Below are positions 19,301 to 48,941 of a stretch of 64,000 nucleotides of DNA, in pieces. Numbering within the stretch: the first letter of the stretch is position 1; each line of letters starts with the position of its first letter. A model generated the notes under the pieces. The model was not told the origin of the DNA and made no database searches. It worked only from the letters and a program-made list of their open reading frames with translations. The translations under genes were made by a program, and so were the position numbers. This DNA is from an uncultured Planctomycetales bacterium (GTDB lineage Bacteria > Planctomycetota > UBA1135 > JACQFD01), in assembly GCA_964545855.1 (NCBI GenBank), contig CAZJHD010000011.1, forward strand, positions 41,763-105,762, given 5' to 3'.

Positions 19301-19596
19301 CTCTTCCCGTCGACGAACTCCATCACGAAGTAGGGCACACCGTCGACGTCGCCGTGATCGAGCCCCTTCACGATGTTCGGATGGTCGAGGCGCGCCGAGA
19401 GACGCGCCTCGCGCTCGAGCCTCGCGACGTAGAGGCGATTCCGCGCGAGCTCGCGACGGAGGATCTTCACGGCCACGAGTCGGTCGAGCCCCGCGTGGCG
19501 CGCGAGATACACCGAGCCGACGCCTCCCGAGCCGAGCCGCTCCAGGATCTCCAGGTCCGGGATCGACGGGAATCGCTCTCGGCTCGGCTCGCTCAT
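16318..19596 (-). CDS. Ser/Thr protein kinase with a long helical-repeat region and a C-terminal beta-rich (lectin/LamG-like) domain
   Basis: 1092 codons starting at MSEPSRERF (ATG at 19596-19594, an ATGA overlap with the upstream stop). Hanks motifs: GSGGVGSVY, VAVKIL, HRDIKPGNLLL, DLG, GTPHYVSPE. One TM segment follows the kinase domain. The 5' extension in the track ORF is Arg-rich artefact. Confidence 0.88.
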   Translation of the reverse strand: MSEPSRERFPSIPDLEILERLGSGGVGSVYLARHAGLDRLVAVKILRRELARNRLYVARLEREARLSARLDHPNIVKGLDHGDVDGVPYFVMEFVDGKSLKTVLRERGRLEEDEVLEFGLQVARALDHAYRLGVVHRDIKPGNLLLAKDGTLKLADLGLARRPDDSSVTKEGTTLGTPHYVSPEQARDPVTADTRSDLYSLGATLFHVATGRPPFDAETVGGVLSQVLDASSVAQVPADVPLSRNLELCLLRLLAKDPARRYQTPDEVIRDLERVRRHERPSVSVFDVNPRARLRLRVGLASGAGLVVVATLVLLAGAGLGLFGSNAPSPAARAAAEELGRLETDADGSPAALADRWARVDALLASGAFEDAGRLRATALQTTIGEAISAAFDGLEREIDRDLAAGIAERRLDEAWTQLETEFPRRVREAFDRRAELLPGPFAIRFERYLDTKRRDLRQEVAAAEAAILAMLPAFLEEESSRVQQHVEEGRFADALVRLADAPSRLMTPQGDAPRRLPDISRDSVAERIRGELASIRSRVLQEAAERGRRITARLQAEFELLRRGVTEGTRSATASEFADEAETVFREMGYVRQQWPLEVVPDPGGLAKDLHDSLASLDRKAEEQRTLREFEVLEARTWARMRERQYVTASQVWRSERERPELAAVRARLDRRIGYADALAGLRARAGRELARRVGTRVNLSLRSGAIASGRLVSTESLADDWLGTLADGAIPEVRFSALALGEIETLVAAESGPRARLELGLLWMAEGQLDRAQARFAAARLDPEASASEAELAAFALSDVSALRLLSQGSGSERERLYRATLDRARELTRIGEMEQARAEYERVRTEAVGFDVGDPRVADLDREIEEFEVLWRAHQRRRALAGAFPGARASELPDGRLRLDYDLAAGPGPSGLEVPKGWRRTAAGIQCEGAALEDASRLGRAPALRFPLPAMGRGPVRFTARSSLPYESDPVSLLVHGLTAFGRTGAIHRASGGGPWSAQLISGGAEVLDLAPWPRHWEPGFRRSSGFLRGGTHDLSLDVSEDGRSAVLRVDGAAVASLDAAVAGDACELRCTGAILLRSLSVEGVALPR

Positions 19597-21203
19597 CGAC
19601 GCGGGACCCACTGCGTCCACTCCGCCTCGACTCCCGCCACGTCCAGGCCGAAGGCCTCGCGGAACGCCTGGTCGTGGAAGACGCGCGCCCGGTCGGGGAT
19701 CCGCTGGAGCCCCCAGAGCTTGCGCACGAGCCGGTGGAATCGGTCGAGCCCTCCCGGCGCCTTCTGCGCGAGGAACTGCACGACGCTCATCGACTTGCGC
19801 ACGTCGTCGATCGTCAGGTCCGGGAGGTCCTTCTGCACGATGGCGAGCAGCGATTGCGGACGCCCCGCGGCGATCGAAGCCCTCAGCTCGTCCTCCCAAC
19901 GGCCCGCGCGCGCATCGCTGCGGCGTTCACCGCCGGTGGTCGTGCCCCCGGAGCCCTCCGCGCGGGGAACGGAGCGCGAGTGCGCGCAGAAGATCGTGTT
20001 CCTCTCCCAGGCGGCCGCTTCCGCGAGGCATGCCAGCGCCTCGTCGTACCAGGGCGGCAGCAGCGACGGCACGTGCCCGTGCCGGTTCGCGAGCACGTGG
20101 CCCACGTGGTGGAACGTCTGGCCCGCCGCCTGGTCGAGGTCTCGTCCCCGCAGCAACGCCACGGAAACGCCGAGGGGCTCGTGCACGAAGTAGCCGTGCG
20201 TCCGGCGCGCCCGCTCGTCCCACCCCTCCCAGAGGAAGCGCTTCGACTCGCGGTAGGTCCGGTCGACGGCGCGCCCGTACTCGGCGTCGCCCTCGAGGAC
20301 GATCAGCTCGACGCGCGGGATCGGCTGCGACGCCGGCATCGCGAAGGGCGCCGGGGGGATCCCCGCCGAGAGGACGCTTCCGGCTCCATCGCCGCCGAAG
20401 AGACGATCGAGCGCTCCGAGAGCGCGCTCGCTCCCCTCGGAGACGGTGCGGAGCCACGCCTCCTCGGCCGCTCCCTGGACCGCGAAGTGCGCCGAGAGCA
20501 CGAGCTTCCAGGACGCGACCCCGAACTCGGCCGCCGCTTCGCGGGACCGGAGGCGGAACGGGATCTCCGACGCCTCGATCCAGGCTCCCTCGAAGGACTC
20601 GAGGCCCCGCGCGCGCCGGGCCTCGTCCTCCGTGACCCACCGGTCGCCGAGTCGGACGAGCCCCTTCTCGAGCGCCTCTTTCTCCTCCGGCGCCATCCAC
20701 CGGCCACGGAACTCGACCAGACCCTGGGCCGCGAGCGCCGCAGCCTTCCGCTCCTCGTCGCGGCGTGCCTTCTCCTCCGGCGTCACCCAGTCGTCGCCGT
20801 CGCGCACGCGGCCGAGGGCGCGGTTCGCCGCCTCGTGGCGCGGATCGATCTCCACGGCCGTCTCGAGGCATCTCCGCGCCTCCTTCGACATCCCCTTCTC
20901 GGCGCACCACCGCGAGAGCTCGAACCAGTCGCCGGCCGTCTTCGCGTCGAGGCGTCTCCGCGGGAGCTCCTCCTCCGGCGTCTCCTTCCGCTCGATGCGA
21001 ACGACCGACGCACGCGGCACCTCGATCGTGCCGAACCGCGTCTCGATGCGAACCACGGCGTCGTCCTCCCGCACGATCTTGCCCTCGATCGTCCGACCAT
21101 CGTTCGTCACGACCACGTCGGCGGACGCAGGGGGCGCCGAGGCGAGCGCCGCGGCGGCGAGCACCGCCAGCAGGACGGCGCGGGCCCGGCCTCGGCGGAT
21201 CAC
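19593..21203 (-). CDS. secreted hypothetical protein with GxW(V/M)xxEE repeats
   Basis: 536 aa with a GTG start. The signal peptide is AVLLAVLAAAALASAPPASA. Four spaced repeats are present: DGDDWVTPEE, FRGRWMAPEE, LGDRWVTEDE, FEGAWIEASE. The C-terminal domain has histidines (HHVGHVLANRHGH) but no HExxH. Both gene ends are 4-nt overlaps. Confidence 0.6.
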   Translation of the reverse strand: MIRRGRARAVLLAVLAAAALASAPPASADVVVTNDGRTIEGKIVREDDAVVRIETRFGTIEVPRASVVRIERKETPEEELPRRRLDAKTAGDWFELSRWCAEKGMSKEARRCLETAVEIDPRHEAANRALGRVRDGDDWVTPEEKARRDEERKAAALAAQGLVEFRGRWMAPEEKEALEKGLVRLGDRWVTEDEARRARGLESFEGAWIEASEIPFRLRSREAAAEFGVASWKLVLSAHFAVQGAAEEAWLRTVSEGSERALGALDRLFGGDGAGSVLSAGIPPAPFAMPASQPIPRVELIVLEGDAEYGRAVDRTYRESKRFLWEGWDERARRTHGYFVHEPLGVSVALLRGRDLDQAAGQTFHHVGHVLANRHGHVPSLLPPWYDEALACLAEAAAWERNTIFCAHSRSVPRAEGSGGTTTGGERRSDARAGRWEDELRASIAAGRPQSLLAIVQKDLPDLTIDDVRKSMSVVQFLAQKAPGGLDRFHRLVRKLWGLQRIPDRARVFHDQAFREAFGLDVAGVEAEWTQWVPRR

Positions 21204-26750: not shown

Positions 26751-27848
26751 CTACCGAGAGTTCGCCTGCGACCTCGACCGCGTCACGAGCGAGTCCACGG
26801 TCTCGCGCACGGACCCGATCGAGCCGTCCACGCGTCCCGTGGCGAAGCCCGCGCGCCCCGCCAGGGCGTCGCCGGAAGCCCGGAGCAGCGCGATCACGCG
26901 GTCCGCGATGCGGGCGGCGATCTCCTCCGGTGCGCCGGGGAGCGCGACGACGATGGCGTCCTCGGAGTAGACGGCGACGGTGTCGCTCGGGCGCGTGGAC
27001 GCGAGCGCGTGACGCGCGAGAGCGACGGCCGTCTTGCGCCGGCCGACCCTCCCGATCCTCGAGGGGACCGCGAGAGCCACGAGCGTGATGCCTGCGCCCT
27101 CGGGGCCCTCGCAGGCGAGCTGCGCGTCGGTCCTCTCGATGAAGCGAGAGAGGGCGAGCGGCGTTCGGGGCCGATCCTGGAGGACCGTCTTCGGCGCTCC
27201 ATCCTCGATCCGCCGGATCCGATCGGAGAGAGACTGGGCCGCCACCCGGAGGAGCGGACCCAGGGCGGCGGCGCCCGCCTCGTCCGGCGGGCAGGCGACG
27301 ACGAGCGCTCCCCAGGGCTCGACGCGGCCCGTGATGGGGACCACGGCGACGGCCGAGGGCTCGCCGTAGGCGAGCACGAAGGCGGAGACGAGCTCGTCGG
27401 TCGTGTCTCGGAACACGCGGAGCGCCCCCGCGTCGTTCGACGCGTTGCGGAGCGGCACGCGCCCGACGGTGATGCGAGGGCCGTCCGCGTGGCCGCCTCC
27501 GAGGACATGCAGCGCCTCGAGCTTCCCTTCGGGGTGCAGGACGCGGAAGCAGATCGCTCGAGTCGAGGTCGTCTCCTCGGCCCCCTTCGATCCGTCGCCG
27601 GAGGACTCCGGGAGCGGGGCAGCCGGCGGACTCGACGATGCATCGGCCGCGCCGCCGGCCGGCTTCTCCGCGCCCGCGCCGGCCGCCGGCGTCTCGGCCA
27701 TTCCGCTCGCCGCCGCCAGCTTGTCGTACCAGGCGAGGGTCGCCTCCGCCGCCACGCCGACCGTTGCCGACTTCGCGAGCTGGCGGCGAAGCAGCTCGAC
27801 TTCCTCGAGACTCGGCACGATTCGCGGCGGCGCAGGTGTCGTGGTCAT
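26751..27848 (-). CDS. GAF-like plus degenerate GGDEF-like regulatory protein
   Basis: 365 codons from MTTTPAPP (ATG at 27848-27846). The central region is GAF-like. The C-terminal region is laid out like a GGDEF domain, but the signature reads VYSEDAIVVALPG instead of RxGGDEFxxLLPG. Confidence 0.45.
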   Translation of the reverse strand: MTTTPAPPRIVPSLEEVELLRRQLAKSATVGVAAEATLAWYDKLAAASGMAETPAAGAGAEKPAGGAADASSSPPAAPLPESSGDGSKGAEETTSTRAICFRVLHPEGKLEALHVLGGGHADGPRITVGRVPLRNASNDAGALRVFRDTTDELVSAFVLAYGEPSAVAVVPITGRVEPWGALVVACPPDEAGAAALGPLLRVAAQSLSDRIRRIEDGAPKTVLQDRPRTPLALSRFIERTDAQLACEGPEGAGITLVALAVPSRIGRVGRRKTAVALARHALASTRPSDTVAVYSEDAIVVALPGAPEEIAARIADRVIALLRASGDALAGRAGFATGRVDGSIGSVRETVDSLVTRSRSQANSR

Positions 27849-28063: not shown

Positions 28064-29374
28064 ATGTCCTTGGAATCCAACCGCCCGCACTCCGGGCTCC
28101 AGGAGCAGACTCCACACGCGCTCCGCTTCGCATGCGGCGAGGGCGGGAGCGTCGAAGCGGCGGAGGAGACGGCCGCGCCCTCCGCCGAGCCGGTCCCGAC
28201 GCTCGTCCTCGGGTCGGGAATCACGGCCCTCGGCGTGCTCCGAACGCTCGGGAGGCGCGGCTTCGAGGTCTACGCGCAGTCGAACCCGGGAGACCTCGCG
28301 ATCCATTCGCGCTGGTTCCGGCCGCTGCCGGGGGTCGAGCCGGGCTCCGTCGAGCCCGCGGACCTCGCACGAGCGCTCGCCCGGCTCTCCTTCGAGCGCG
28401 CCGTGGTGATCCCCTGCTCCGACGGCTGGACCGCCGCGGCCTCCGCGCTGCCGAAGGAGGTCGCGCGACGATTCCTCACGAGCCTCGCACCGGCGGACGC
28501 CATCCGCACGCTCCTCGACAAGGGGCTCCTCGCGCAGCTCCTCGTCCGCATCGACGTCCCCGCGCCGCGCACGGTGCTCGTCGAGAGCGAGGCGGACCTC
28601 GCGGGGTTGGACGACTCCGCGTTTCACGACGTCTTCCTGAAGCCGCGGCATTCGCAGGCGTTCCTCGAGCGCTTCCACGTGAAGGCGTTCCGGGTGAACG
28701 GCCGTACCGACGCGATGGCGCGCCTGCGGGAGATCTCCGCGGCTGGGCTCCCCGTCGTGCTGCAGGAGTACGTCCCGGGCCCGCCCTCCTCGCACTACTT
28801 CCTCGACGGCTTCGTCGACCGGTCGGGCCGCGTGCGCGCGCGCTTCGCGCGGCGCCGGCTCCGGATGTTCCCGCCGGACTTCGGCAACAGCACGCTCACG
28901 GTGAGCATCCCCTTCCACGAGGTTGCGCCCGCCATCGACGCGCTGGACCTCGTTCTCGACGCGGTGCGCTTCCGCGGCATCTTCAGCGCCGAGTTCAAGC
29001 GCGACGCTCGCGACGGAGTCCTCCGCCTGTTGGAGGTGAACGTGCGCCCCTGGTGGTACCTCGGCTTCGCCGAGTCCTGCGGCGTGCCCGTCTGCGAGCT
29101 CTATCAGCGCGACGCCCTGGGTCTGCCTCCGCCGGTGGTCCGGCCGTACGTCGTGGGACGCCGCTGCGCCTACCCCTACTTCGACTTCGCCGCCTACCGC
29201 TTCGCGAAGCAGTCGGGCGCGACTCCGCGGCCCCGGCTCGCAGGGGTGCTCCGATCGTGGTGGGGCGCCGACCAGCCGATCTTCGCCTGGGACGACGTCC
29301 GACCCGCCGCCTTCCACTTCGGCTTCCTGACCCGCCGTTTCGTCCGGACGCACCTCCGCCGCGCCCGGCGATGA
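28064..29374 (+). CDS. ATP-grasp domain protein (predicted carboxylate-amine ligase type)
   Basis: I placed the start at the internal ATG at 28064 (MSLESN). The pre-ATP-grasp region reads LVLGSGITALGVLRTLGRRG. The core reads ...FLKPRHSQAF...VVLQEYVPGP...FRGIFSAEFKRDARDGVLRLLEVNVRPW. Confidence 0.65.
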   Translation: MSLESNRPHSGLQEQTPHALRFACGEGGSVEAAEETAAPSAEPVPTLVLGSGITALGVLRTLGRRGFEVYAQSNPGDLAIHSRWFRPLPGVEPGSVEPADLARALARLSFERAVVIPCSDGWTAAASALPKEVARRFLTSLAPADAIRTLLDKGLLAQLLVRIDVPAPRTVLVESEADLAGLDDSAFHDVFLKPRHSQAFLERFHVKAFRVNGRTDAMARLREISAAGLPVVLQEYVPGPPSSHYFLDGFVDRSGRVRARFARRRLRMFPPDFGNSTLTVSIPFHEVAPAIDALDLVLDAVRFRGIFSAEFKRDARDGVLRLLEVNVRPWWYLGFAESCGVPVCELYQRDALGLPPPVVRPYVVGRRCAYPYFDFAAYRFAKQSGATPRPRLAGVLRSWWGADQPIFAWDDVRPAAFHFGFLTRRFVRTHLRRARR

Positions 29375-39110: not shown

Positions 39111-39187
39111 GGGCGGCTGGCTCAGCTGGTTAGAGCGCCACATTCACATTGTGGAGGTCGCAGGTTCGAATCCCGCGCCGCCCACCA
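39111..39187 (+). tRNA. tRNA-Val (anticodon CAC), CCA encoded
   Basis: I folded the cloverleaf by hand. Acceptor stem GGGCGGC/GCCGCCC. D stem GCTC/GAGC. Anticodon stem CCACA/TGTGG with loop TTCACAT (anticodon CAC). Variable loop AGGTC. T arm GCAGG-TTCGAAT-CCCGC, with one A-C mismatch. Discriminator A plus CCA. Confidence 0.85.
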
Positions 39188-39527: not shown

Positions 39528-40610
39528 ATGCTTCCGAGGGCGGCCCTTGCGGACGTGCGCAGCCTGCATCGGCGCGAGCGCGCTCTGCAGGCGGCCCTCG
39601 GGCTTGCTGACGGGCTCTTCGCGATCGCCATCGCGGCTTCCGCCGCGATCCTCCTCGCGCGCCTACTCGGCGCCGCGATCGAGCCGCGACCGCTCTGGGG
39701 ACTCGCGGCGCTCGCCGCCGTTCCCTACGCCCTCGTGCGCGCATCCCGCCGCGCGCCCAGCCTCGCGCGGTGCGCGGCGCGGATCGATCGCGCCTCGCCG
39801 CTGCGCGGGCTGCTGATCGCGTCGCTGGAGGCGGACACGAGCGCGTGGTCGGCGCCGCTCGCGGCGGGGCTCGCCGCCCCCCGCGCTCCCATCCCCGGAC
39901 CGCCGCTTCGCGCGCCGATCGTCCGCCTCGCGGTCGCGCTCGGCCTCGTCGCGACGGTGGTCGCGCTCCCCGCGAACGCCGTATCCTCCTCGCCCTTCGC
40001 GAATCCGGCGATCGCCGAAGCGATCGAGGCGCAGCGCCACGACCTCCAGAGCCTCCAGGAGAAGTCGATGCTCGACCCCGAGCAGTCCGAGTCGCTGCGT
40101 CTCGCGCTCGAGGAGCTGTCGGAGAAGGCGGAGTCCGGGGAACGCGTCGACTGGGCCGACGTCGACGCGGCGCAGGCGCGCCTCGCGCACGCGCTGGACT
40201 CTCGCGAAGCTTCCCTCGCCTCGGCGCGCGACGCCCTCGATGCGCTCGCCGCGCGGGCGGACGACGGCGCGAGCGGCCCGATCGGCGAGGAACTCGCCGA
40301 CGCCCTCGCGCGTCTCGCGGAGTCGGGCCTCGCGGCGGACCTCCCCGCCGAGCTGCGCGTGGCCGCCGGTCTCGAGGCTTCGGACGGCGCGCGCGCCGGG
40401 CTCGACGCGAGCCGGCTACCCGCCGGCGCCGAGGCCGCCGCCGACCTCGCGCGGCGCGCGGCGAACGCGCTCGACGCACGGCTCGCCGACCTCGCTGCGG
40501 CGGGTCTCGCCGATCCCGAGGCGGGGCGCCGCCTCGCGGAGCTCTCGGAGGCGGAGCGCGCCGCCTCCCCCACGCACGAGCACGGGGAGGAATGCGCCGG
40601 TGGCACCTGA
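39528..40610 (+). CDS. hypothetical membrane protein, first gene of the MoxR/VWA operon; its annotated stop is an in-frame UGA
   Basis: 360 aa. Two N-terminal TM helices (LFAIAIAASAAILLARLL, LWGLAALAAVPYALV) are followed by a third hydrophobic segment and an Ala/Asp/Leu-rich helical region. It ends ...HEHGEECAGGT-TGA. Confidence 0.6.
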   Translation: MLPRAALADVRSLHRRERALQAALGLADGLFAIAIAASAAILLARLLGAAIEPRPLWGLAALAAVPYALVRASRRAPSLARCAARIDRASPLRGLLIASLEADTSAWSAPLAAGLAAPRAPIPGPPLRAPIVRLAVALGLVATVVALPANAVSSSPFANPAIAEAIEAQRHDLQSLQEKSMLDPEQSESLRLALEELSEKAESGERVDWADVDAAQARLAHALDSREASLASARDALDALAARADDGASGPIGEELADALARLAESGLAADLPAELRVAAGLEASDGARAGLDASRLPAGAEAAADLARRAANALDARLADLAAAGLADPEAGRRLAELSEAERAASPTHEHGEECAGGT

Positions 40611-41024
40611 AGCGGCGGCGGGGGCGACGGTCGTCGCCCGGAATCGAGACCTGCCGGCAGCGCGGGCGCAGCCGGTGCTCTCGCGGAGGCCGACTCGGCC
40701 GCGAGCGCGAACGACTCCGGCGCCGGCGGAATCGACCGCGGCCGCGGCGACGCCGCACTCCGCTACGGCAACGAGCCGGCCGGCGCGAGCGAGACCTTCC
40801 GCGCCGAGAAGCTGCCGGCCGGCGCCCTCGTCGGCGAGCAGTGGAGGATCGTCGGTCGCTCCGCCGCCGAGCCGCGCGTCGATCCGATCGCGCCCGAAGG
40901 CGCGGGCCGCGCCGGCGCCCGTGGATCGGGAGAGGCCGCGTGGCGGCGTCGCCTCGCGCCCCGCCACCGCGAGGTCGTGTCCCGCTACTTCGGCGCGGAC
41001 CCCGCGGGCGACCGCGGCCGCTGA
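40611..41024 (+). other. 138 codons of strong same-frame coding signal downstream of the UGA, with no ATG/GTG/TTG start until the last 17 codons
   Basis: Hand translation in the frame of the 39528 ORF gives SGGGGDGRRPESRPAGSAG...ETFRAEKLPAGALVGEQWRIVGRSAAEPRVDPIAPEG...AAWRRRLAPRHREVVSRYFGADPAGDRGR-TGA. Third codon positions are almost all G/C. It ends 12 nt before the MoxR start. Confidence 0.55.
40622..40639 (+). promoter_or_regulatory. SECIS-like stem-loop candidate
   Basis: GGGCGAC (40622-40628) pairs with GTCGCCC (40633-40639) around the loop GGTC. It begins exactly 11 nt after the UGA at 40608-40610. Confidence 0.3.
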
Positions 41025-41036
41025 GTCGGGATCCCG

Positions 41037-42086
41037 TTGAGAGCTCCTCCGGAAACGGGCGCGTCTCCGACGCCTCGACTCCTCGCGCCGAGCGACGTGG
41101 AGCGCGCGCGCGAGCTCCTCGGCCGCGTCCGGTCCGGGCTCGCGGAGACGATCCTCGGGCAGGACGAGCTGCTCGACCTCGTCACGATCGCGCTCGCCGC
41201 GCGCGGGCACCTGCTCCTCGAAGGGCTCCCGGGCCTCGGGAAGACGGAGCTCGTGAAGGCGCTCGCCGCGCTGCTCGCGCTCTCCTTCCGAAGGATCCAG
41301 TTCACGCCCGACCTGCTCCCGAGCGACGTGACCGGCGGTCCCGTCCTCGAAGAGCGCGGCGGCTCCCGCACGTTCGTGTTCCATCCGGGGCCGCTCTTCG
41401 CGCACGTGGTCCTCGCCGACGAGATCAACCGCGCGTCGCCGAAGACGCAGTCCGCTCTCCTGGAGGCGATGCAGGAGCGGCGCGTCACGGTGCTCGGCGA
41501 GACGCACCCGTTGCCCGATCCCTTCTTCGTCCTCGCGACCCAGAACCCCATCGAGCTCGAAGGGACCTATCCGCTCCCCGAGGCGCAGCTCGACCGATTC
41601 CTCTTCAAGGTCGAGGTGCCCGGCGTGAGCGCCGACGTCCTCGTGCGCATCGTCCGCGAGCGCCGTCGCGGCGCACCGCCCGCGCTCGCGCCGGTCGCGA
41701 CCCACGGAGATCTCACGGAGCTCTTCCAGCTCGTCGACCGCGTCTTCCTCCCGGAGCCCGTCGCCCGCTACCTCGCGAGAATCGTGGATGCGACCCACCC
41801 TTCGTCGCCGCGATGCCCGGAGCGCGCGCGGCGTCTGGTGCGCTACGGGGCGTCGCCGCGGGCGGCAATCGCGCTCGCCGAGGCGGGACGCGCCTCGGCG
41901 CTCCTCGAGGGCCGCCCCAACGTCGACTTCTCCGACGTCGAGCGCGTGGCCGTCTCGGCGCTCGCGCACCGCCTCGTCCTCGATCACGCGGCGCGACTCG
42001 AGGGAGTCACGCCCCGCGACGTGGTCGCGACGATCCGCTCGGCCGTCGACCCGCTCGATCGCGACGAGCCTCGCGGCGCCCCGTGA
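41037..42086 (+). CDS. MoxR-family AAA+ ATPase
   Basis: 349 aa with a TTG start. Motifs: ILGQDELLDLVTIALAARGHLLLEGLPGLGKT (Walker A), VVLADEINRASPKTQSALLEAMQE (Walker B / sensor), ATQNPIELEGTYPLPEAQLDRF. Confidence 0.9.
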   Translation: MRAPPETGASPTPRLLAPSDVERARELLGRVRSGLAETILGQDELLDLVTIALAARGHLLLEGLPGLGKTELVKALAALLALSFRRIQFTPDLLPSDVTGGPVLEERGGSRTFVFHPGPLFAHVVLADEINRASPKTQSALLEAMQERRVTVLGETHPLPDPFFVLATQNPIELEGTYPLPEAQLDRFLFKVEVPGVSADVLVRIVRERRRGAPPALAPVATHGDLTELFQLVDRVFLPEPVARYLARIVDATHPSSPRCPERARRLVRYGASPRAAIALAEAGRASALLEGRPNVDFSDVERVAVSALAHRLVLDHAARLEGVTPRDVVATIRSAVDPLDRDEPRGAP

Positions 42087-43936
42087 GAGCCGCGCTCGCC
42101 GAGACCGTCGTCGCCGCGGCCGTCGTCCTCGCTGCCGCAGCGACGCGCGTCGGCGCGCAGGAGGAGAGGCACTTCGCGTTCCTTCGGAAAGCCGGTGGCA
42201 TCGAGCAGCGGGTCGCCCGCTTCCACGTGCGGTCCTTCCCGATCGCGGCACAGCCGGGGGGCTGGAGCTGGATCACCGCCAACGTCGAGGTCGTCGACGG
42301 CAAGCCCCACGAGGTCGAGGTGGAGGTCGTGTCGCCCATGCCGGTCCTGGAGGCGCGGCGCCGCCTGCGGCTCGCGGCCGGAGAGAGAGCGACCCTCTCC
42401 CTTCCGGCGTCGGGAACCGGCATGGGTTGGAACCTGATCCGCTGCCATGTCGACGGCGAGCCCGTGGGCGACGTGAACCTATCGACGTCGCGATACCCCG
42501 CCTCGACGACCGGGATCGAGATGGGGCTCGTCGTGTCGGACGACCCCGACTTCGCTCGGGCGATCGCGGCATTGATCGACGCGAAGGAGGGAGTGCGCGC
42601 CGGCTCGGCGTCCGCCGCCGTCGTCGCTCCTCCCGAGCTGCTCCCGGACCGTTGGAGCTGGCTCTCGGGAGCGAGCGTGATCGTCGTCGACTGCGACGCA
42701 CCCGGGCTTACGCCGGATCGCCAGCGCGTGCTCGCGGACTACGCCGCGGGAGGTGGCCGGCTCGTTCTGACGGCGCGATCGGGAGCGATCGCGATCGAAG
42801 GACCCCTCCGGGAGCTGATCGGCGAGGGTTCGGGCCCCGGCGCAACCGAGGGGCACTACGGCCTCGGGACCTGGGCCGTCGATCCGACTTCGTCGCCGTC
42901 CCCTTCGGTGCTCCGCCACCCGAGCGGCGCGCGCTGGGGCGCGGGCGCGCCGGACGTCGGCCTCCTCGCCTTCCTCGACCTCCCGGGGCTCGGACACGTC
43001 CGGTTCGGCTTCGTCGTCCTCCTGCTCACGGCCTTCGCCACCGCCGTCTGCGTCGAGGTGATCTGGCTCGTGCGGCGCAGGCGCGCCGTCGCGCTCCTCG
43101 TCGTGGTGCCCGCCACCGGACTCGGCTTCGCGGCCGCCGTCGTGGTCTACGGCCTCCTCTCCGACGGGCTCGGCGTGAAGGGGTCGATCCGGAGCTTCAC
43201 GCTGCTCGACCAGAGGCGCCACACGGCCGTCGCCGTGGCGCAGCGAACGCTCTACGCGGGCATCTCCCCGTCTCGGCTCTCCCTCGATGCGGCGACGCTG
43301 CCCGCCTCGTCGAGCTGGAGGACTTCGACTGCGGATTCGCTCCATCGCCTCTCGATCGATCTCGATCGAGGAGAGATCGCCGGAGCGGCGCTCCCTTCCC
43401 GCGTCCCGACGCAGATGGCGACGACGACGGTCGCGCCGTGTCGGGAGCGGCTGCGGTTCCGCCGCGCTCCTGGCGGAGCGCTGGAGCTCCGCGCGGGCTC
43501 GGGGTTCGAGCCGGTCGAAGCCGAGGGCGCGCTCGTCGTGCGCGACTTCGACGGGTCGATGCATGTGCTGACGGGAGAGTCGCTCCGGCGGGTCGGCGAC
43601 GACCGAGCGGATCCTTTCGTCCACCGCGCGCTCCGCGCGTTCGCCGACGTCTCCGCGGCGCATCCGCGCGCGTTCGGAGGCGTGGCTCCGCAGCGAGGCT
43701 TCGTGATCGAGTCGTCCCCGGCGGAGACGTCCGAGTCGGCGAGCTACGCCGACGAGCCGAGCCAGGCTGAGCTCCGGCGATGGATCCGCGACGACCTCGT
43801 CGGCACCCTCGCTCCGGGCAGCTACCTCGCGCGCACGCGTGCCGCGCCCGCCGTCGACGATCTCGGCCTGGAGGTCGCCTGGGTCCGCGAGGAGCACGTC
43901 GTGCTCGGGAGGCTTGCTCCGGAGGACATCGAATGA
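42083..43936 (+). CDS. hypothetical membrane protein
   Basis: 617 codons within track ORF 39770..43936. The GTG at 42083 forms a GTGA overlap with the MoxR stop. It has an N-terminal signal-like helix (VVAAAVVLAAAATRVGA) and two central TM helices (FGFVVLLLTAFATAVCVEVIWLV, LLVVVPATGLGFAAAVVVYGLL). Confidence 0.6.
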   Translation: MRAALAETVVAAAVVLAAAATRVGAQEERHFAFLRKAGGIEQRVARFHVRSFPIAAQPGGWSWITANVEVVDGKPHEVEVEVVSPMPVLEARRRLRLAAGERATLSLPASGTGMGWNLIRCHVDGEPVGDVNLSTSRYPASTTGIEMGLVVSDDPDFARAIAALIDAKEGVRAGSASAAVVAPPELLPDRWSWLSGASVIVVDCDAPGLTPDRQRVLADYAAGGGRLVLTARSGAIAIEGPLRELIGEGSGPGATEGHYGLGTWAVDPTSSPSPSVLRHPSGARWGAGAPDVGLLAFLDLPGLGHVRFGFVVLLLTAFATAVCVEVIWLVRRRRAVALLVVVPATGLGFAAAVVVYGLLSDGLGVKGSIRSFTLLDQRRHTAVAVAQRTLYAGISPSRLSLDAATLPASSSWRTSTADSLHRLSIDLDRGEIAGAALPSRVPTQMATTTVAPCRERLRFRRAPGGALELRAGSGFEPVEAEGALVVRDFDGSMHVLTGESLRRVGDDRADPFVHRALRAFADVSAAHPRAFGGVAPQRGFVIESSPAETSESASYADEPSQAELRRWIRDDLVGTLAPGSYLARTRAAPAVDDLGLEVAWVREEHVVLGRLAPEDIE

Positions 43937-44871
43937 GCGCGCTCGCCCTCGAGGTCGACCGAGTGACGCGGCGCTTCGGAAGCGTCGTCGCCGTCGACGG
44001 CCTCTCCTTCCAGCTCGAGAAGGGCAAGGTCTGCGGCTTCGTCGGCCCGAACGGAGCCGGGAAGACGACGACGATGCGCATCCTCGCGACTCTCGAGCTC
44101 CCCGATGAGGGCGACGCGCGAGTCCGGGGCCTCTCGGTGCTGGAGGAGCCCCGGGGAGTCCGGCGAGCCGTCGGCTTCATGGCCGACCAGTTCGTGCCCT
44201 ATCCGAACCTGAGCGTGCGCGAGCTCCTCGACTTCTTCGCTCTCGCGCACGGGCTCCGCGGGCGCAAGCGCCTCGAGACGATCGACGCGGTCGCGACCTT
44301 CTGCGGTCTCGCCGACCTCCTGGGGCGCCCGGCGACGGGCCTTTCGAAGGGGATGGGGCAGAGGCTCCACCTCGCAAAGACCCTGCTCCACGACCCCGAC
44401 GTGCTCGTCCTCGACGAGCCCACGGCCGGCCTCGACCCGCGCGCCCGCGTCGAGTTCCGGGAGCTCGTCCGCGAGCTCGCCTCGCGCGGGAAGACGATCC
44501 TCTGCTCCTCCCACATCCTGTCGGAGCTCGGCGAGATCTGCGACGAGGTCCTCGTGATCGAGCGCGGGCGCCGCATCGTCTCGGGCGGGATCCGCACCAT
44601 CGCCCGCGAGCTGCAGTCTCGCCTCGCGGTGCGCGCCCGCGTCCTGCGCGACGGCGACGCCGCCGAGCGCTTCTTCGCCGTGCAGGCGGGCGTCGATCGG
44701 CTCGTCCGCTCCGACGCGAGCCTCACGTTCGAGTTCAGCGGGGACGATGCGGCCCTGAGCGAGCTCCTCGAGCGCGCCGCCGCGGCGAGCCTCGGCCTCG
44801 TCGAGTTCCGCGTGCTCGAGGCGAGCCTCGAGGAGATCTTCCTGCGCTCGACCAAGGGGGTCGTCCAGTGA
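43933..44871 (+). CDS. ABC transporter ATP-binding protein (ABC-2 / export type)
   Basis: The ATG at 43933 forms an ATGA overlap with the upstream stop. Motifs: Walker A GPNGAGKTT, signature LSKGMGQRLHLAKTL, Walker B VLVLDEPTAGLDP, H-loop SSHIL. Confidence 0.88.
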   Translation: MSALALEVDRVTRRFGSVVAVDGLSFQLEKGKVCGFVGPNGAGKTTTMRILATLELPDEGDARVRGLSVLEEPRGVRRAVGFMADQFVPYPNLSVRELLDFFALAHGLRGRKRLETIDAVATFCGLADLLGRPATGLSKGMGQRLHLAKTLLHDPDVLVLDEPTAGLDPRARVEFRELVRELASRGKTILCSSHILSELGEICDEVLVIERGRRIVSGGIRTIARELQSRLAVRARVLRDGDAAERFFAVQAGVDRLVRSDASLTFEFSGDDAALSELLERAAAASLGLVEFRVLEASLEEIFLRSTKGVVQ

Positions 44872-46355
44872 TCGCGAGCGATCGCGCCGCGCTCGGGCTC
44901 CGCGACCGGCTGAATCCCGTGTTCGTGCGGGAGGTCCAGCAGGCGTTCAACGGCAAGTCGTTCCTCCTGATCCTCGCGCTCGCCCTCGCCGCCGTCGGCA
45001 CCATCGCGGCGATCCTCGGCCTCGAGGACCCGTCGACGCAGGGCCTCGGCGCGCAGGGTCTCCAGCTCGTCACGATGACGCTCGCGCCCATCGCGGTCCT
45101 CGTCGTGCCGACGCAGGCCTTCCTCTCGATGAGCCGCGAGATGCGCGCCGGCACGGCGGAGCTGCTGCTGCTCACGAGCCTCTCGCCCGGGACGATCGTG
45201 CGCGGGAAGCTGCTCGCGGCGATCTCCCAGTTCGGGCTCTGGCTCTCGCTCTTCGCGCCGCTCCTCGCGCTCTGCTACCTGCTGCGCGGGATCTCGGTCG
45301 TCGACGTCGTTCTCGGCATCGCCCTCACGACGCTCTTCTGCGCCGCCGCCAGCTCCTTCGCCATCGCGCTCGGGTCGCTCGCGCGCTCGGGCCCCGCGGC
45401 CGGCATCGTCACGGCTCTCGCCGCCCTCGGGCTCGCCATGGCGACGCTCCAGACGATGGCGTTCTTCGCATGGGCGTTGTTCGCCATGGGAATGTGGGGA
45501 GGCTCGTCCGCATTCGTGGAGGTCTACGGGACGGTCTGCGTCGTCCTCGCGCTCGTGGTCTCGCTCGGGGCGGTCGTCGCCCAGAGCCAGCTCCAGCACA
45601 CCGTCGAGAACCGCTCGACTCCCTTCCGGGTCTTCTTCCTCACGGCGTGCGCGACGGGACTCGTCTGGACGTGGGCCGTCTCGACGCCCGGGTTGCTCGA
45701 CGGCGCGCTCGATCGCGTCTCGACCTGCTGCTTCATGGCGGGCCTCGTCTTCTTCGTCTTCGCCGCGACGGAGGAGCCGGAGCTCTCGCCTCGCGTTCGG
45801 GCGCGCGTCCCGCGCAGCCCGACGATCGCCTTCCTCGCGCTCCCCTTCCTCCCGGGCGCGGGCCGGGGGCTCCTCTTCGCGGTCCTCGCGACGGCGCTCG
45901 TCGGCATTGCGACGATCTTCGGTCAGGCGAAGGACGGGTGGCCGGTCTCGCGCGACCATCTGACCTGGCTCGCCTGGGCCCACTACGCGGTCCTCTACGC
46001 CTCGATCGCCTTCCTCCTGCGCCGGCTCCTCCGACGGATCCGGCGTCCGGCCCTCGCGGCCCGGCTCGCGACGGCGGCCTTCTTCCTCTTCGTCGGCATT
46101 CTCCTCCCGACGCTCCTGCAGGTCGCCTTCCGGAGCACGTCCGGATCCGCGGGCCGAGAGTGGACGCTCCTCCAGGTGCTGAATCCCTACTGGACGACCG
46201 GCACCTTCGCGAGGAGACCGACGGGCGCCAGCTTGGCGCTCCCCCTGCTCCTGCTGATCGACCTCGTCCTGCTGCTCCTCTGCCTGCCGTCCGTCCTCCG
46301 CTCCGTCGGGGAGGTCTTCGCGGCCTCGCGCGCGAATCGCCGCCGTGCGGCCTGA
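44868..46355 (+). CDS. polytopic membrane protein, probable permease partner of the ABC ATPase
   Basis: 495 aa. The GTG start forms a GTGA overlap with the ATPase stop. About 10 hydrophobic helices run along the whole length. Confidence 0.65.
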   Translation: MIASDRAALGLRDRLNPVFVREVQQAFNGKSFLLILALALAAVGTIAAILGLEDPSTQGLGAQGLQLVTMTLAPIAVLVVPTQAFLSMSREMRAGTAELLLLTSLSPGTIVRGKLLAAISQFGLWLSLFAPLLALCYLLRGISVVDVVLGIALTTLFCAAASSFAIALGSLARSGPAAGIVTALAALGLAMATLQTMAFFAWALFAMGMWGGSSAFVEVYGTVCVVLALVVSLGAVVAQSQLQHTVENRSTPFRVFFLTACATGLVWTWAVSTPGLLDGALDRVSTCCFMAGLVFFVFAATEEPELSPRVRARVPRSPTIAFLALPFLPGAGRGLLFAVLATALVGIATIFGQAKDGWPVSRDHLTWLAWAHYAVLYASIAFLLRRLLRRIRRPALAARLATAAFFLFVGILLPTLLQVAFRSTSGSAGREWTLLQVLNPYWTTGTFARRPTGASLALPLLLLIDLVLLLLCLPSVLRSVGEVFAASRANRRRAA

Positions 46356-47157
46356 CCTCGAGCTCGCCTGCGCACGATTCCGTCTCGCGCCGCCGGTGCG
46401 CGCGCTCGCGGGCCTCGCCGGCGAGCGGCTCGGGCGGGGCCTCGGCGCGTCCCTCGAGTTCCAGGACTTCCGCGACTACGCCCCCGGCGACGACCTGCGG
46501 CGCGTCGACTGGCGCTCCTACGCACGGACCGACCGGCTGCAGGTGCGTCTCTACCGCGAGGAGGTCTCGCCGGCGCTCGACCTCGTCGCCGACCTCTCCG
46601 CGTCCATGGGCGTGACGGAGACGAAGGCGCGCGCGACGCGCGACCTCGTCGAGGCGTTCGCTGCCTGGGGGCTGCGCGCCGGAGGGCGGCCGCGGCGCCT
46701 GCGCGCCGGCGGCGCCCGGTTCGAGGACGCCGGCGCCGAGCGGCTCGAGGGAGACGGCCGCGGCGGGCTCCTCCCGCGCGAGGCGCTCCGCCCCCACGGC
46801 GTGCGCGCCGTCGTCTCCGACTTCCTCTTCGCCGGAGATCCCGGCCCCGCGATCCGGCGCCTCGCCGCCGGCGCCGCGCACCTCGACGTGATCCAGCTCC
46901 TCGATCCCTGGGAGCAGGACCCCGCGCTCGACGGGACGTGGGCTCTCGTCGACGCCGAGGACGGCTCGCGACAGGAGCTCCGGCTCGACGCGCGCGCCGT
47001 GAAGGGCTACCGCGAGCGCCTCGCGCGGCTCCGCGGCGCCGTCGAGTCAGCGGCCCGCGCCGCGGGCGCCCGCTACGCCTGCGTCGCCGCCGCGGAGCCC
47101 GAGGCGATGTTCCGGGGCGCGCTCCTCGCCCGGGGAATCCTGGAGCCGGCGCGGTGA
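46345..47157 (+). CDS. DUF58-family protein (MoxR-associated)
   Basis: 270 aa. The hallmark motif is LEFQDFRDYAPGDDLRRVDWRSYARTDRLQVRLYREE. It overlaps the upstream gene by 11 nt. Confidence 0.8.
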   Translation: MRPDLELACARFRLAPPVRALAGLAGERLGRGLGASLEFQDFRDYAPGDDLRRVDWRSYARTDRLQVRLYREEVSPALDLVADLSASMGVTETKARATRDLVEAFAAWGLRAGGRPRRLRAGGARFEDAGAERLEGDGRGGLLPREALRPHGVRAVVSDFLFAGDPGPAIRRLAAGAAHLDVIQLLDPWEQDPALDGTWALVDAEDGSRQELRLDARAVKGYRERLARLRGAVESAARAAGARYACVAAAEPEAMFRGALLARGILEPAR

Positions 47158-48941
47158 ACTTCGCCGCGCCCCTCGGCCTGCTCGCGCTGCTCGCGCTCCC
47201 CGCGATCCTCTTCCTGCATCTCTTCCGCCGGCGCCTGCGGGAACGACGCGTCGCCGGCCTTTTCCTCTTCGCGCCCGACGCGCTCACGGCGCCCGCGGGG
47301 CGCCGGCGCACGCGGCTGCTCCGGACCGGGTCGCTCCTCTGCGAGCTCGCGGCGGCGGCGGTGCTCGCGCTCTGGCTCGGCGCGCTCGACCTCGGCTGCT
47401 CCGCCCGCGCGGTCCACGTCGTCGCCGTCCTCGACGACTCCGCGTCGATGGGGGCGCGCGGCCCGGCGGGATCCTTCGCCGACCGGGCGAGGCGCGTCGT
47501 GGAGTCGGCGCTCGACGGTGCGGGCTCCGCTGCGACGGCGACGCTCGTCGTGAGCGGACCCCGTCCCGAGATCGTGGCCGGGCCGCATGCGCCCGCCGCG
47601 GAGGTGCGCGCGGCGCTCGCCGCCTGGTCGCCCCGCCGGACACGCCATGACCCGGCCGCCGCCCTCGACCTCGGCCTCGCGATCGCGGGCGCCTCGGATC
47701 GGCTCCTCTTCGTGACGGACGAGCCGAAGGCTCCGGCGCCTCCGCGCTACGAGGTCGTCGCCGTCGGCGAGCCGCTCGCGAACGCGGCGATCGTCGCGGC
47801 GAGGCGCGTCGTCGAGCCCGGCGGCGAGGAGCGGCTCCTCCTCGACGTGCGCGCCTTCGGCGCCGGGATCGGCCGCGTCCGCGTCCGAGTGCATTCCGCC
47901 GAGGGGCCGGGCCGCGGCGCGCTGCTCGCCGAGACCGACGCGGCGCTCGGGGAAGGCTCCCTGGCGCGGCTCGCGCTCGTGCTGCCGCCGGACGCGGGCG
48001 CCGTCACGGCGACGATCGACGACGACGCGCTCGCGATCGACGGCGAGGCGACGCTGCTCCCCGATCCGCTCCGGATCGTCGGCGTCGCGTCGCTCCTCGG
48101 CGAGGAGGAGACGGGGCGCCTGCGGCTCGACCGGGCGCTCGCCGCGATCCACGGCGCGCGCGCGGCGCCGCTCGCGGAGTCGACCGTCGTCCTCGCGCCC
48201 GCCGCCGGCGCGCTTGCGCCGGGGCGCGTCGAGCTCGTGATCCAGGCGACGGGTCCCGAGCGCAGCGAGTGGACCGGGCCGTTCCTGCTCGCGCACCGCC
48301 ACCCGCTCCTCGCCGGCGTGACGCTCGCGGGCGTGGTCTGGAGCGCGGGCGACGGAAGCCACCCCGGGCTCCCGCTCGTGTCGGCCGGCGACCGGACGCT
48401 CGTGAGCGAGTCGGTCGAAGGGACCGCGACGCGCCTCTGGGTCGATCTCGACCTCGCGCGCAGCAATCTCCCCTTCTCGCCGGACTGGCCGATCCTCCTC
48501 GCGAACGTCGTCGAGCGCGCGCGAGCGGGGCTGCCGGGCCTCGGCGCGGCGAACGCGCGCGTCGGGGACGAGATCGTCTGGCGCGCCGAGACGCCGGGGG
48601 CGCCGGCGGGAGCGGTCGAGTGCGTCGCGCCGAGCGGCGCACGTGCGCCCGGGCGCGGGAGCGCCGAGATCGGGTTCCCGGCGCGCGAGCCGGGGATCCA
48701 CCGGATCGAGAGGAGCGGGCGCGAGGTCGCGCGCTGCGCCGTGCGCTTCGAGGACGCGAGCGAGTCGGACCTGACGCGGTGCGGAGCCGCGCGGCGACCC
48801 GCCGAGGCACCGCCCTCGCCGGACGAGGCGGCGGCGCAGGCCGCGGCTCCGGCGGCGGCGGAGCGGCGCGTCCTCGCGGTCCTCCTGCTGGCCGCGCTCG
48901 TCGCCGACTGGCTCGTCCTGCGGCGGGCTCGCACCTCGTGA
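47154..48941 (+). CDS. BatA-like protein: N-terminal double-TM domain plus a VWA-like domain
   Basis: The GTG at 47154 forms a GTGA overlap with the upstream stop. The N-terminus reads FAAPLGLLALLALPAILFLHLFRRR, then a second TM helix. A MIDAS-like VAVLDDSASMG follows, and there is a C-terminal TM helix. Confidence 0.7.
   Translation: MNFAAPLGLLALLALPAILFLHLFRRRLRERRVAGLFLFAPDALTAPAGRRRTRLLRTGSLLCELAAAAVLALWLGALDLGCSARAVHVVAVLDDSASMGARGPAGSFADRARRVVESALDGAGSAATATLVVSGPRPEIVAGPHAPAAEVRAALAAWSPRRTRHDPAAALDLGLAIAGASDRLLFVTDEPKAPAPPRYEVVAVGEPLANAAIVAARRVVEPGGEERLLLDVRAFGAGIGRVRVRVHSAEGPGRGALLAETDAALGEGSLARLALVLPPDAGAVTATIDDDALAIDGEATLLPDPLRIVGVASLLGEEETGRLRLDRALAAIHGARAAPLAESTVVLAPAAGALAPGRVELVIQATGPERSEWTGPFLLAHRHPLLAGVTLAGVVWSAGDGSHPGLPLVSAGDRTLVSESVEGTATRLWVDLDLARSNLPFSPDWPILLANVVERARAGLPGLGAANARVGDEIVWRAETPGAPAGAVECVAPSGARAPGRGSAEIGFPAREPGIHRIERSGREVARCAVRFEDASESDLTRCGAARRPAEAPPSPDEAAAQAAAPAAAERRVLAVLLLAALVADWLVLRRARTS

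Follow-up and report, generated by a model that had tools for sequence, protein, structure and literature searches.

Does the UGA at the end of the first open reading frame (ORF) of a MoxR operon terminate a protein, or does it encode selenocysteine (Sec)? This question was raised by a 64,000-nucleotide stretch of DNA from an uncultured Planctomycetales bacterium (contig CAZJHD010000011.1; the whole stretch is hereafter called the window). In the window, an ORF with an ATG start (39528-40610) ends in ...HEHGEECAGGT-TGA, and the same frame continues beyond it. The initial annotation of the locus had offered selenocysteine, readthrough or a fresh pseudogene as explanations. In the present study, we compared the locus with its homologues, and the results suggested, with a probability of about 0.85, that the UGA at 40608 is a Sec codon with a bacterial selenocysteine insertion sequence (bSECIS) in a new MoxR-operon family of selenoproteins. 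According to its translation, the candidate selenoprotein gene is complete at 39528..41024 (+), where a single gene of 498 codons, including one Sec (UGA), plus a stop, would yield a product of about 498 residues.

The reading frame around the UGA was examined within the window. The in-frame TGA is located at 40608..40610 (+), after ...HEHGEECAGGT, as initially annotated. Beyond it, the frame stays open for 137 codons by our count and closes at TGA 41022-41024, and only 12 nt separate this stop from the TTG start of the MoxR gene at 41037, in agreement with the earlier description. The frame beyond the TGA contains a single canonical start, GTG 40977, and none in the 122 codons before it; the remark that a start appears only near the end of the frame was therefore correct, but this GTG sits 15 rather than 17 codons ahead of the stop. 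GC-rich third codon positions had also been taken as a coding signature of the continuation. The G+C content at third positions (GC3) of the continuing frame was indeed 0.93-0.95 over 40698-40878, but the claim did not hold for the 90 nt directly 3' of the TGA, where GC3 was flat (0.78/0.82/0.78) and thus uninformative. Two compensating frameshifts around the TGA, an idea that came from the flat GC3, were ruled out because both flanking peptides align residue-for-residue with forms of the protein that carry Cys at this position. TGA is the stop of 21 of the 25 confidently coding ORFs in the window. As had been pointed out, it is an ordinary stop here, so any recoding at 40608 must be local. 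When the window was scanned for further TGAs with coding signal in the same frame on either side, only 29372-29374 (+) was returned, which is flanked by open frames of 484 and 374 codons. This site was rejected as a recoding site and appears to be an ordinary gene end, since GTG 29432 can serve as the start of the following gene, which encodes a GNAT (Acetyltransf_6) domain; the product upstream of it had no Pfam match.

The homologues of the fused product indicated that the two halves belong together. A search with this product retrieved uninterrupted proteins of 445-454 aa (P0002-P0004) that align to both halves, and homologues elsewhere are single proteins of about 440-500 aa over both halves. 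The window's own N-terminal product had no record in the database look-up. A scan of one genome per species yielded 21 loci (L002-L022), and the lineages named were Acidobacteriota, Verrucomicrobiia and Planctomycetota. In 14 of these loci, from Acidobacteriota and Planctomycetota (one record named Brocadiaceae), the homologue is one open frame of 453-512 codons. Six of the 21, all Planctomycetota, carry a TGA at the homologous position in the context H-x-C-[DE]-[DE]-x-C-x-x-G-G-T-TGA-S-G-L-G-R-A-G; one of the six comes from an isolate with a closed genome, Engelhardtia mirabilis Pla133 (L017, NZ_CP036287.1). With a metagenome scan and contig look-ups, the TGA forms were extended to 20 distinct sequences, namely the window and 19 others. 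The TGA follows G-G-T or G-G in all 20 and is succeeded by 110-145 more in-frame codons, and the sources, where named, were all Planctomycetota. The TGA form was also present in genomes of 52-56% GC (L036, L037), in which the gene itself ends in TAA. Gene callers split the TGA forms into an N-terminal protein of 351-388 aa and a small ORF of 106-139 aa that begins at an arbitrary internal start; in the case of P0006, the Prokaryotic Genome Annotation Pipeline (PGAP) recorded the small ORF as a 'hypothetical protein [Engelhardtia mirabilis]' of 126 aa.

We then considered the sequence downstream of the TGA. The ratio of nonsynonymous to synonymous substitution rates (dN/dS) was 0.18-0.55 in seven pairs, and the constraint was equal to or above that of the 120 upstream codons. 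These results demonstrated that purifying selection acts on the frame beyond the TGA. It had been argued at the outset that recoding would be refuted if orthologues ended at the same place and an independently started gene followed. The TGA is indeed shared, but in the 19 loci compared (the window plus 18 relatives) the first in-frame ATG, GTG or TTG after it lies anywhere from codon 7 to codon 123, and no initiation site downstream of the TGA is conserved.

Selenocysteine classically reveals itself by an alignment position at which some homologues have UGA and others a Cys codon. The alignment of orthologues showed this pattern: relatives have either Cys or TGA at the position, or lack the linker around it altogether. 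P0018, the relative closest to the C-terminal half of the window protein, reads ...HKHDGDCAGGR-C-PGGAG..., with the codon TGC at L030 310-312, where the window reads ...HEHGEECAGGT-U-SGGGG.... An exhaustive phmmer search with P0018 gave 324 family members, and full-length Cys forms were found among the homologues: P0040 (CAGGH-C-PGG), P0042 (CAGGN-C-PGG), P0043 (HVHGPECVGGN-C-PAG), P0044 (HVCDENCAKQLGGK-C-SGTG) and P0051 (CAGGA-C-S). The assignment of the window's UGA to Sec draws both on these Cys homologues and on the homologous TGA in 19 other distinct loci.

One metagenomic locus was distinctive in this region. At L025:2926-2952, two in-frame TGAs lie 8 codons apart (CPLCKDLEPGET-U-PGAEGGT-U-KGG), and the first of them aligns with a Cys of L043 (GET-U-PGAEGGT-U vs GEP-C-PGGT-U). 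This locus is likely a double-Sec variant. No hairpin of its own was found at the usual distance from the first TGA, and the loop of the shared hairpin begins 45 nt downstream of it.

A bSECIS-like apical hairpin, GGGCGAC-GGUC-GUCGCCC, is located at 40622..40639 (+); its stem of 7 bp is formed by 40622-40628 and 40633-40639, and its loop GGUC occupies 40629-40632. The stem begins 11 nt after the UGA (spacer 40611-40621), exactly as initially described, and the loop 18 nt after it. The RNAfold optimum (-21.7 kcal/mol) includes a possible extended lower stem at 40613..40656 (+), to which we attach low confidence. It had been cautioned that GC-rich DNA often forms such stems by chance, and an equally good contiguous hairpin at this spacing did occur at 3.5% of in-frame positions of the window locus. 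The window hairpin taken alone is only suggestive. We surveyed the same 19 loci. A contiguous stem scoring 5.5-9 bp (GU-corrected) was present in 18 of them, and L041 had 5 bp. The stems start 9-18 nt after the TGA and enclose loops of 3-6 nt. The loop is GGUC in the window, L003 and L023; elsewhere it is GUG (four loci), GGG (three), GGC (two), GGU (one), CGGGC (three), CGGGA (one), CGGGAC (one) or CCGGA (one). Against the background of each locus, equal-or-better hairpins occurred at a median of 4.2% (0.042) of in-frame positions, and Fisher's combination gave p = 4e-11 for the 19 loci and p = 6e-7 for 14 conservative groups. Non-conservation in relatives, which had been named as a reason to reject recoding, was thus contradicted by the data.

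To this survey we added a covariation test, for which ten loci, the window not among them, were aligned with MAFFT from sequence alone. The helix was paired in 90% of cells, compared with 40-59% when the 3' partners were slid. Compensatory changes were observed in five of nine pairs, one of which was seen as GC, UA, AU, CG and UG. The covariation score was 0.494 versus 0.14±0.04 for shuffles, and none of 500 shuffles reached 0.494. The peptides encoded by the stem vary (LAVGE, HAVGV, GAVGA, RAGGA, GDGRR) though the pairing is kept. A covariance model (R1) was built from the same ten loci, again with the window left out. Its best match in the 64-kb window was 40599-40652 (36.8 bits, E ~5e-5), with the model helix aligned to the hairpin at 40622-40639, and it also recovered the TGA sites of seven held-out loci. 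The second-best match in the window, 27345-27388 (+) with 25.8 bits (CTCGCC-GTA-GGCGAG), was rejected as a chance GC-rich hairpin because it has no TGA; it indicates the background level of the model.

The hairpins were further compared with the published bSECIS consensus, which has a loop of 3-9 nt, an upper stem of >=4 bp, a G in the first two loop positions, a loop 16-37 nt from the UGA and a minimum free energy of <= -7.5 (PMC13188914). All 19 sites agreed with this description. These results were consistent with a mechanism in which the UGA at 40608 would be decoded as selenocysteine during translation and the hairpin at 40622-40639 would act as a bSECIS, with SelB carrying Sec-tRNA(Sec) presumably recruited to the ribosome paused at the UGA. 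The product would be the membrane-anchored first protein of a conserved MoxR/VWA operon, and its Sec would lie in a flexible Gly-rich linker, where it may close a ligand-like motif with a metal or redox role.

Three other explanations of the UGA were weighed against Sec insertion. A lone in-frame stop in a contig that resembles a metagenome-assembled genome (MAG) is most often a pseudogene or an error, and a recent pseudogene or a sequencing or assembly error confined to this genome would agree with the loss of GC3 periodicity for ~90 nt after the TGA. However, the hairpin and the Gly-rich linker lie in just this flat stretch. The same TGA recurs in 19 other independent assemblies, a closed isolate genome among them, and dN/dS downstream of it stays below 0.6. 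Neither a lineage-specific disruption nor relaxed constraint downstream was found in the comparative data. The TGA shared by 20 sequences and the constrained frame behind it exclude a pseudogene or a sequencing error, both of which had been considered initially, and we assign this explanation a negligible likelihood. It is also improbable that the locus is a conserved split gene, in which the UGA would be a true stop and the C-terminal 110-145 residues would be made separately by re-initiation or from an internal start, while the role of the hairpin would lie in translational coupling or in stabilizing the mRNA. Gene callers and PGAP do annotate the locus in this way, as in P0006, and in 14 of the 19 loci an in-frame ATG or GTG is found 7-18 codons downstream of the TGA, several times as the GUG of the hairpin loop itself. 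By our estimate from codon frequencies, however, the chance of a start within 18 codons is ~70%, so 14 of 19 is no excess, and the window, L023, L026, L028 and L009 have no start for 29-123 codons. The residues between the TGA and these starts match the Cys forms (U-SGTG vs C-SGTG; U-SGGG vs C-PGGA), a Cys exactly at the TGA position marks Sec rather than a gene boundary, and L025 carries its two TGAs inside the motif.

Readthrough without Sec was considered about as improbable as the split gene. Here, a near-cognate tRNA (Trp, Cys or Arg) would read the UGA under stimulation by the hairpin, and no selenium would be involved. Such readthrough would explain the conserved TGA, the downstream frame and the hairpin equally well. 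It is opposed by the specific alternation with Cys at this position within a Cys/His ligand-like motif, and by the hairpin position and G-rich loop, which fit the bSECIS consensus. Conserved systems in which a hairpin drives UGA readthrough in this way are not known from bacteria, and we counted this against it as well. In addition, some Planctomycetes have complete selA/selB/selD sets (PMC4807772), so the trait exists in the phylum. Of the possibilities raised initially, the selenocysteine or readthrough option was thus the one supported by the conserved TGA, the Cys replacements, the purifying selection and the compensatory changes in the hairpin.

Several observations weigh against Sec insertion. 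Re-initiation is possible in the 14 loci with a start within 18 codons of the TGA. The generic bSECIS description discriminates poorly in GC-rich DNA, as the Cys-codon (TGC) site of L030 fits it too, and it was therefore rejected as sole evidence. The Rfam scan of 40000-41500 with E up to 10 gave no match. The window stem is a perfect 7-bp helix and lacks the bulged U of the Escherichia coli fdhF element, which E. coli SelB needs. The motif around the Sec lies in a variable linker, and many family members, for example in Acidobacteriota, are entirely without it, which is unusual for a catalytic Sec. No tRNA-Sec was detected in the 64-kb window or in the 17 fetched loci, and no sel genes turned up among the scanned ORFs of the window (64 kb of this genome) or the fetched flanks. 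The lack of sel evidence for the window genome and the 19 other carriers is the main reason why we place a ceiling of 0.85 on Sec insertion.

The residues that precede the UGA provided a clue to the role of the putative Sec. The initial annotation had noted a Cys five residues upstream; this Cys is present, but the observation was too narrow, since it belongs to the larger ligand-like motif H-E-H-G-E-E-C-A-G-G-T-U at 40575..40610 (+), which has the form H-x-[H/C]-x3-C-x4-U. Of the 20 Sec forms, 14 contain H-x-[C/H]-x3-C-x(4-7)-U, and the Cys forms (P0018, P0040, P0042, P0043, P0044 and P0051) have H-x-H-x3-C-x4-C or H-x-C-x3-C-x7-C. Swaps between His and Cys are frequent among metal ligands. 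Four potential ligands with His/Cys swapping at one position suggest a metal site. As judged from its residues, the motif would most likely form a four-ligand metal site or, alternatively, a Cys-Sec selenenylsulfide redox switch. The absence of the linker motif from many members indicated that the Sec module is accessory rather than part of the family core.

A different arrangement of the linker was observed in P0048, P0050, P0052, P0070, P0072 and P0075. In place of a single H/C/C/U motif, these members have much expanded Cys-rich linkers with repeated C-x(3-5)-G-x-C units and up to ~14 Cys, which suggests that the linker can evolve as a Cys-repeat module.

Regarding the rest of the protein, we infer from its sequence an architecture of three N-terminal hydrophobic helices within the first ~150 residues, then a long stretch rich in Ala and Glu, the Gly/Cys/His/Sec linker and a C-terminal region that is conserved. 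Two motifs stand out downstream of the Sec. The motif G-G-[IV]-x-R-G-R-G-D-A at 40725..40754 (+) consists of invariant or near-invariant columns in alignments A2 and A6 and also occurs in the uninterrupted homologues. The C-terminal motif W-R-R-R-L-A-P-R-H-R-x-V-V-x-x-Y-F at 40941..40991 (+) was identified from the alignments and is predicted by AlphaFold2 to be helical. The AlphaFold2 model of the C-terminal piece (32 sequences) had a mean predicted local distance difference test (pLDDT) score of 60 and was mostly disordered, with helices at residues 106-127. Pfam-A contained no family for either half, for the fused protein (U->C) or for P0004, P0040 and P0044, and NCBIfam r20 contained none for the halves, the fused protein (U->C) or P0004.

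The genes that follow in the window form a co-directional cluster. The MoxR-type AAA+ ATPase at 41037..42086 (+) matched Pfam AAA_3 (4.6e-62) as well as AAA_lid_2 and bpMoxR. It is followed by a conserved operon gene of ~560-660 aa at 42083..43770 (+). The start of this gene is uncertain, as 41788, the first position of the listed ORF, falls within the MoxR gene; its product had no Pfam or NCBIfam match, and a gene of 591-628 aa occupies the same position in L001, L031, L033, L036 and L037. The DrrA/GldA-like ATPase of an ATP-binding cassette (ABC) transporter at 43780..44871 (+) matched Pfam ABC_tran (7.6e-26), with NCBIfam drrA and GldA below their cutoffs. The conserved gene of ~495 aa at 44868..46355 (+) is possibly an ABC-2 type permease (a weak GldF match, E 3.6e-4, below cutoff), and in L001, L031, L033 and L036 the gene next to that of the ABC ATPase on its 3' side encodes 502-507 aa. 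A DUF58 protein, a usual partner of MoxR, is encoded at 46345..47157 (+) (Pfam DUF58, 6.5e-20), and a BatA/VWA-type membrane protein with an uncertain start at 46938..48941 (+) (VWA_2 7.4e-5 and BatA 9.6e-4, both below gathering scores). The operon order is thus the family gene, MoxR, the ~600 aa protein, the ABC ATPase, the ~500 aa membrane protein and DUF58, and in the window BatA/VWA comes next. By its AAA_3 and DUF58 matches, and weakly by VWA_2/BatA, the window cluster belongs to the MoxR-VWA (Bat-like) systems. According to gene callers, the MoxR gene directly follows the family gene in L001, L031, L033, L036, L037, L043 and L044, and the uninterrupted homologue P0004 (L001) stands directly upstream of MoxR in the same gene order. 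In the homologous clusters, a DUF58 gene was called in L031, L033 and L036, and VWA/BatA lies on the opposite strand in L033.

Upstream of the operon, a tRNA-Val(CAC) at 39111-39187 (+) lies between the ETF-alpha gene and the candidate selenoprotein operon. The LepA of the window is 84-86% identical to proteins of Planctomycetota MAGs, in agreement with a source in this phylum. In the close relatives L045 and L046, whose LepA is 85-86% identical to that of the window, the block of LepA, signal peptidase, ABC, ETF-beta and ETF-alpha is kept and different genes follow, so the tRNA-Val marks a synteny break. The MoxR operon was not adjacent to the LepA block in these closest relatives, and no very close orthologue was obtained through LepA synteny; the operon may have been inserted or relocated at the window site. 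Two tRNA calls by ARAGORN lie within coding sequence. For the tRNA-Val(CAC) at L031:11308-11382 (-), which falls within MoxR in a related MAG, a false positive is probable. The tRNA-Arg(GCG) at 17470-17568 (-) of the window, unusually long at 99 nt, lies within a coding-like open frame (16318-19926 (-), 1202 codons) and could be either an embedded element or a spurious call.

Compared with known systems, the locus has both familiar and unusual features. The proposed mechanism, a UGA with an intragenic SECIS, is the one known from bacteria. The minimal SelB-binding SECIS of E. coli fdhF is a stem-loop 11 nt after the UGA with a GGUC-type apical loop (G23/U24) and a bulged U in the upper stem. 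The window locus resembles fdhF-type genes in its in-frame UGA with an immediate stem-loop and in the existence of Cys homologues, and an 11-nt spacing and a GGUC loop, as in the minimal fdhF element, would be found in the window, L003 and L023. Unlike fdhF, it has no bulged U and the loops of its relatives vary (GUG, GGG, GGC, CGGGC); moreover, the family has no sequence relation to FdhF or any of the listed selenoprotein families, and its putative Sec is placed in a flexible Gly-rich linker rather than in a folded active site. A 2026 inventory lists 119 prokaryotic selenoprotein families and subfamilies (PMC13188914), and no counterpart of the window family was found in this 119-family table. 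Metal-binding examples in the inventory include the putative mercuric transport protein with C/SxxU, the metal-binding double selenoprotein MbdU, the YHS-domain protein with GxU and the CopZ-like 2Fe-2S protein (PMC13188914). The window family is similar to these in that its Sec would lie in a short Cys/His-rich motif with ligand-like spacing and an H-x-H/H-x-C swap, but it differs from them in architecture, with three putative transmembrane helices, a long acidic coiled stretch and a conserved C-terminus that is predicted to be disordered, and it matched none of their NCBIfam or Pfam models. Nor is it among the new deep-Sep families, which come from Desulfobacterota (PMC12013277). The BSepDB paper does not mention Planctomycetota, and full-text literature searches for selenoprotein with MoxR or with Planctomycetota returned nothing relevant, with no selenoprotein reported in such operons.

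With respect to gene context, the cluster is similar to the MoxR-DUF58-BatA/VWA operons (Bat-like, aerotolerance-type) in combining MoxR AAA_3, DUF58 and BatA/VWA in one co-directional cluster. It differs from them in being led by an uncharacterised membrane protein and in adding an ABC ATPase, a putative permease and the ~600 aa protein. The Cys-form members (P0040, P0042-P0044) and the linker-less members (P0002-P0004, Acidobacteriota) share the domain order and the motifs GGVxRGRGDA and WRRRLAPRH with the window protein. They differ from it in having Cys for Sec or no linker, and they are annotated as single 'hypothetical proteins'.

Taken together, the comparison allows a broader proposal, which we put forward only tentatively: the locus might represent a new, ~120th prokaryotic selenoprotein family, found in Planctomycetota where sources are named, in which Sec would complete a His/Cys/Cys-type metal site or a selenenylsulfide switch on the membrane anchor of a MoxR-VWA-ABC system. 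If true, this would be the first link between selenium and the MoxR AAA+ chaperone system. Public records, RefSeq for the cultured Engelhardtia mirabilis Pla133 among them, list the gene as two separate 'hypothetical proteins', and its recognition as one selenoprotein would correct dozens of annotations. Since a carrier strain, Pla133, is in culture, the claim is directly testable. The prokaryotic selenoproteome would gain a family in a phylum whose selenoproteins have been little studied. MoxR-VWA systems, few of whose substrates are known, are generally linked to metal-cofactor insertion or stress tolerance; the Sec/Cys/His motif in the lead protein of the operon would offer a concrete handle on what the MoxR/VWA/ABC system senses or handles.

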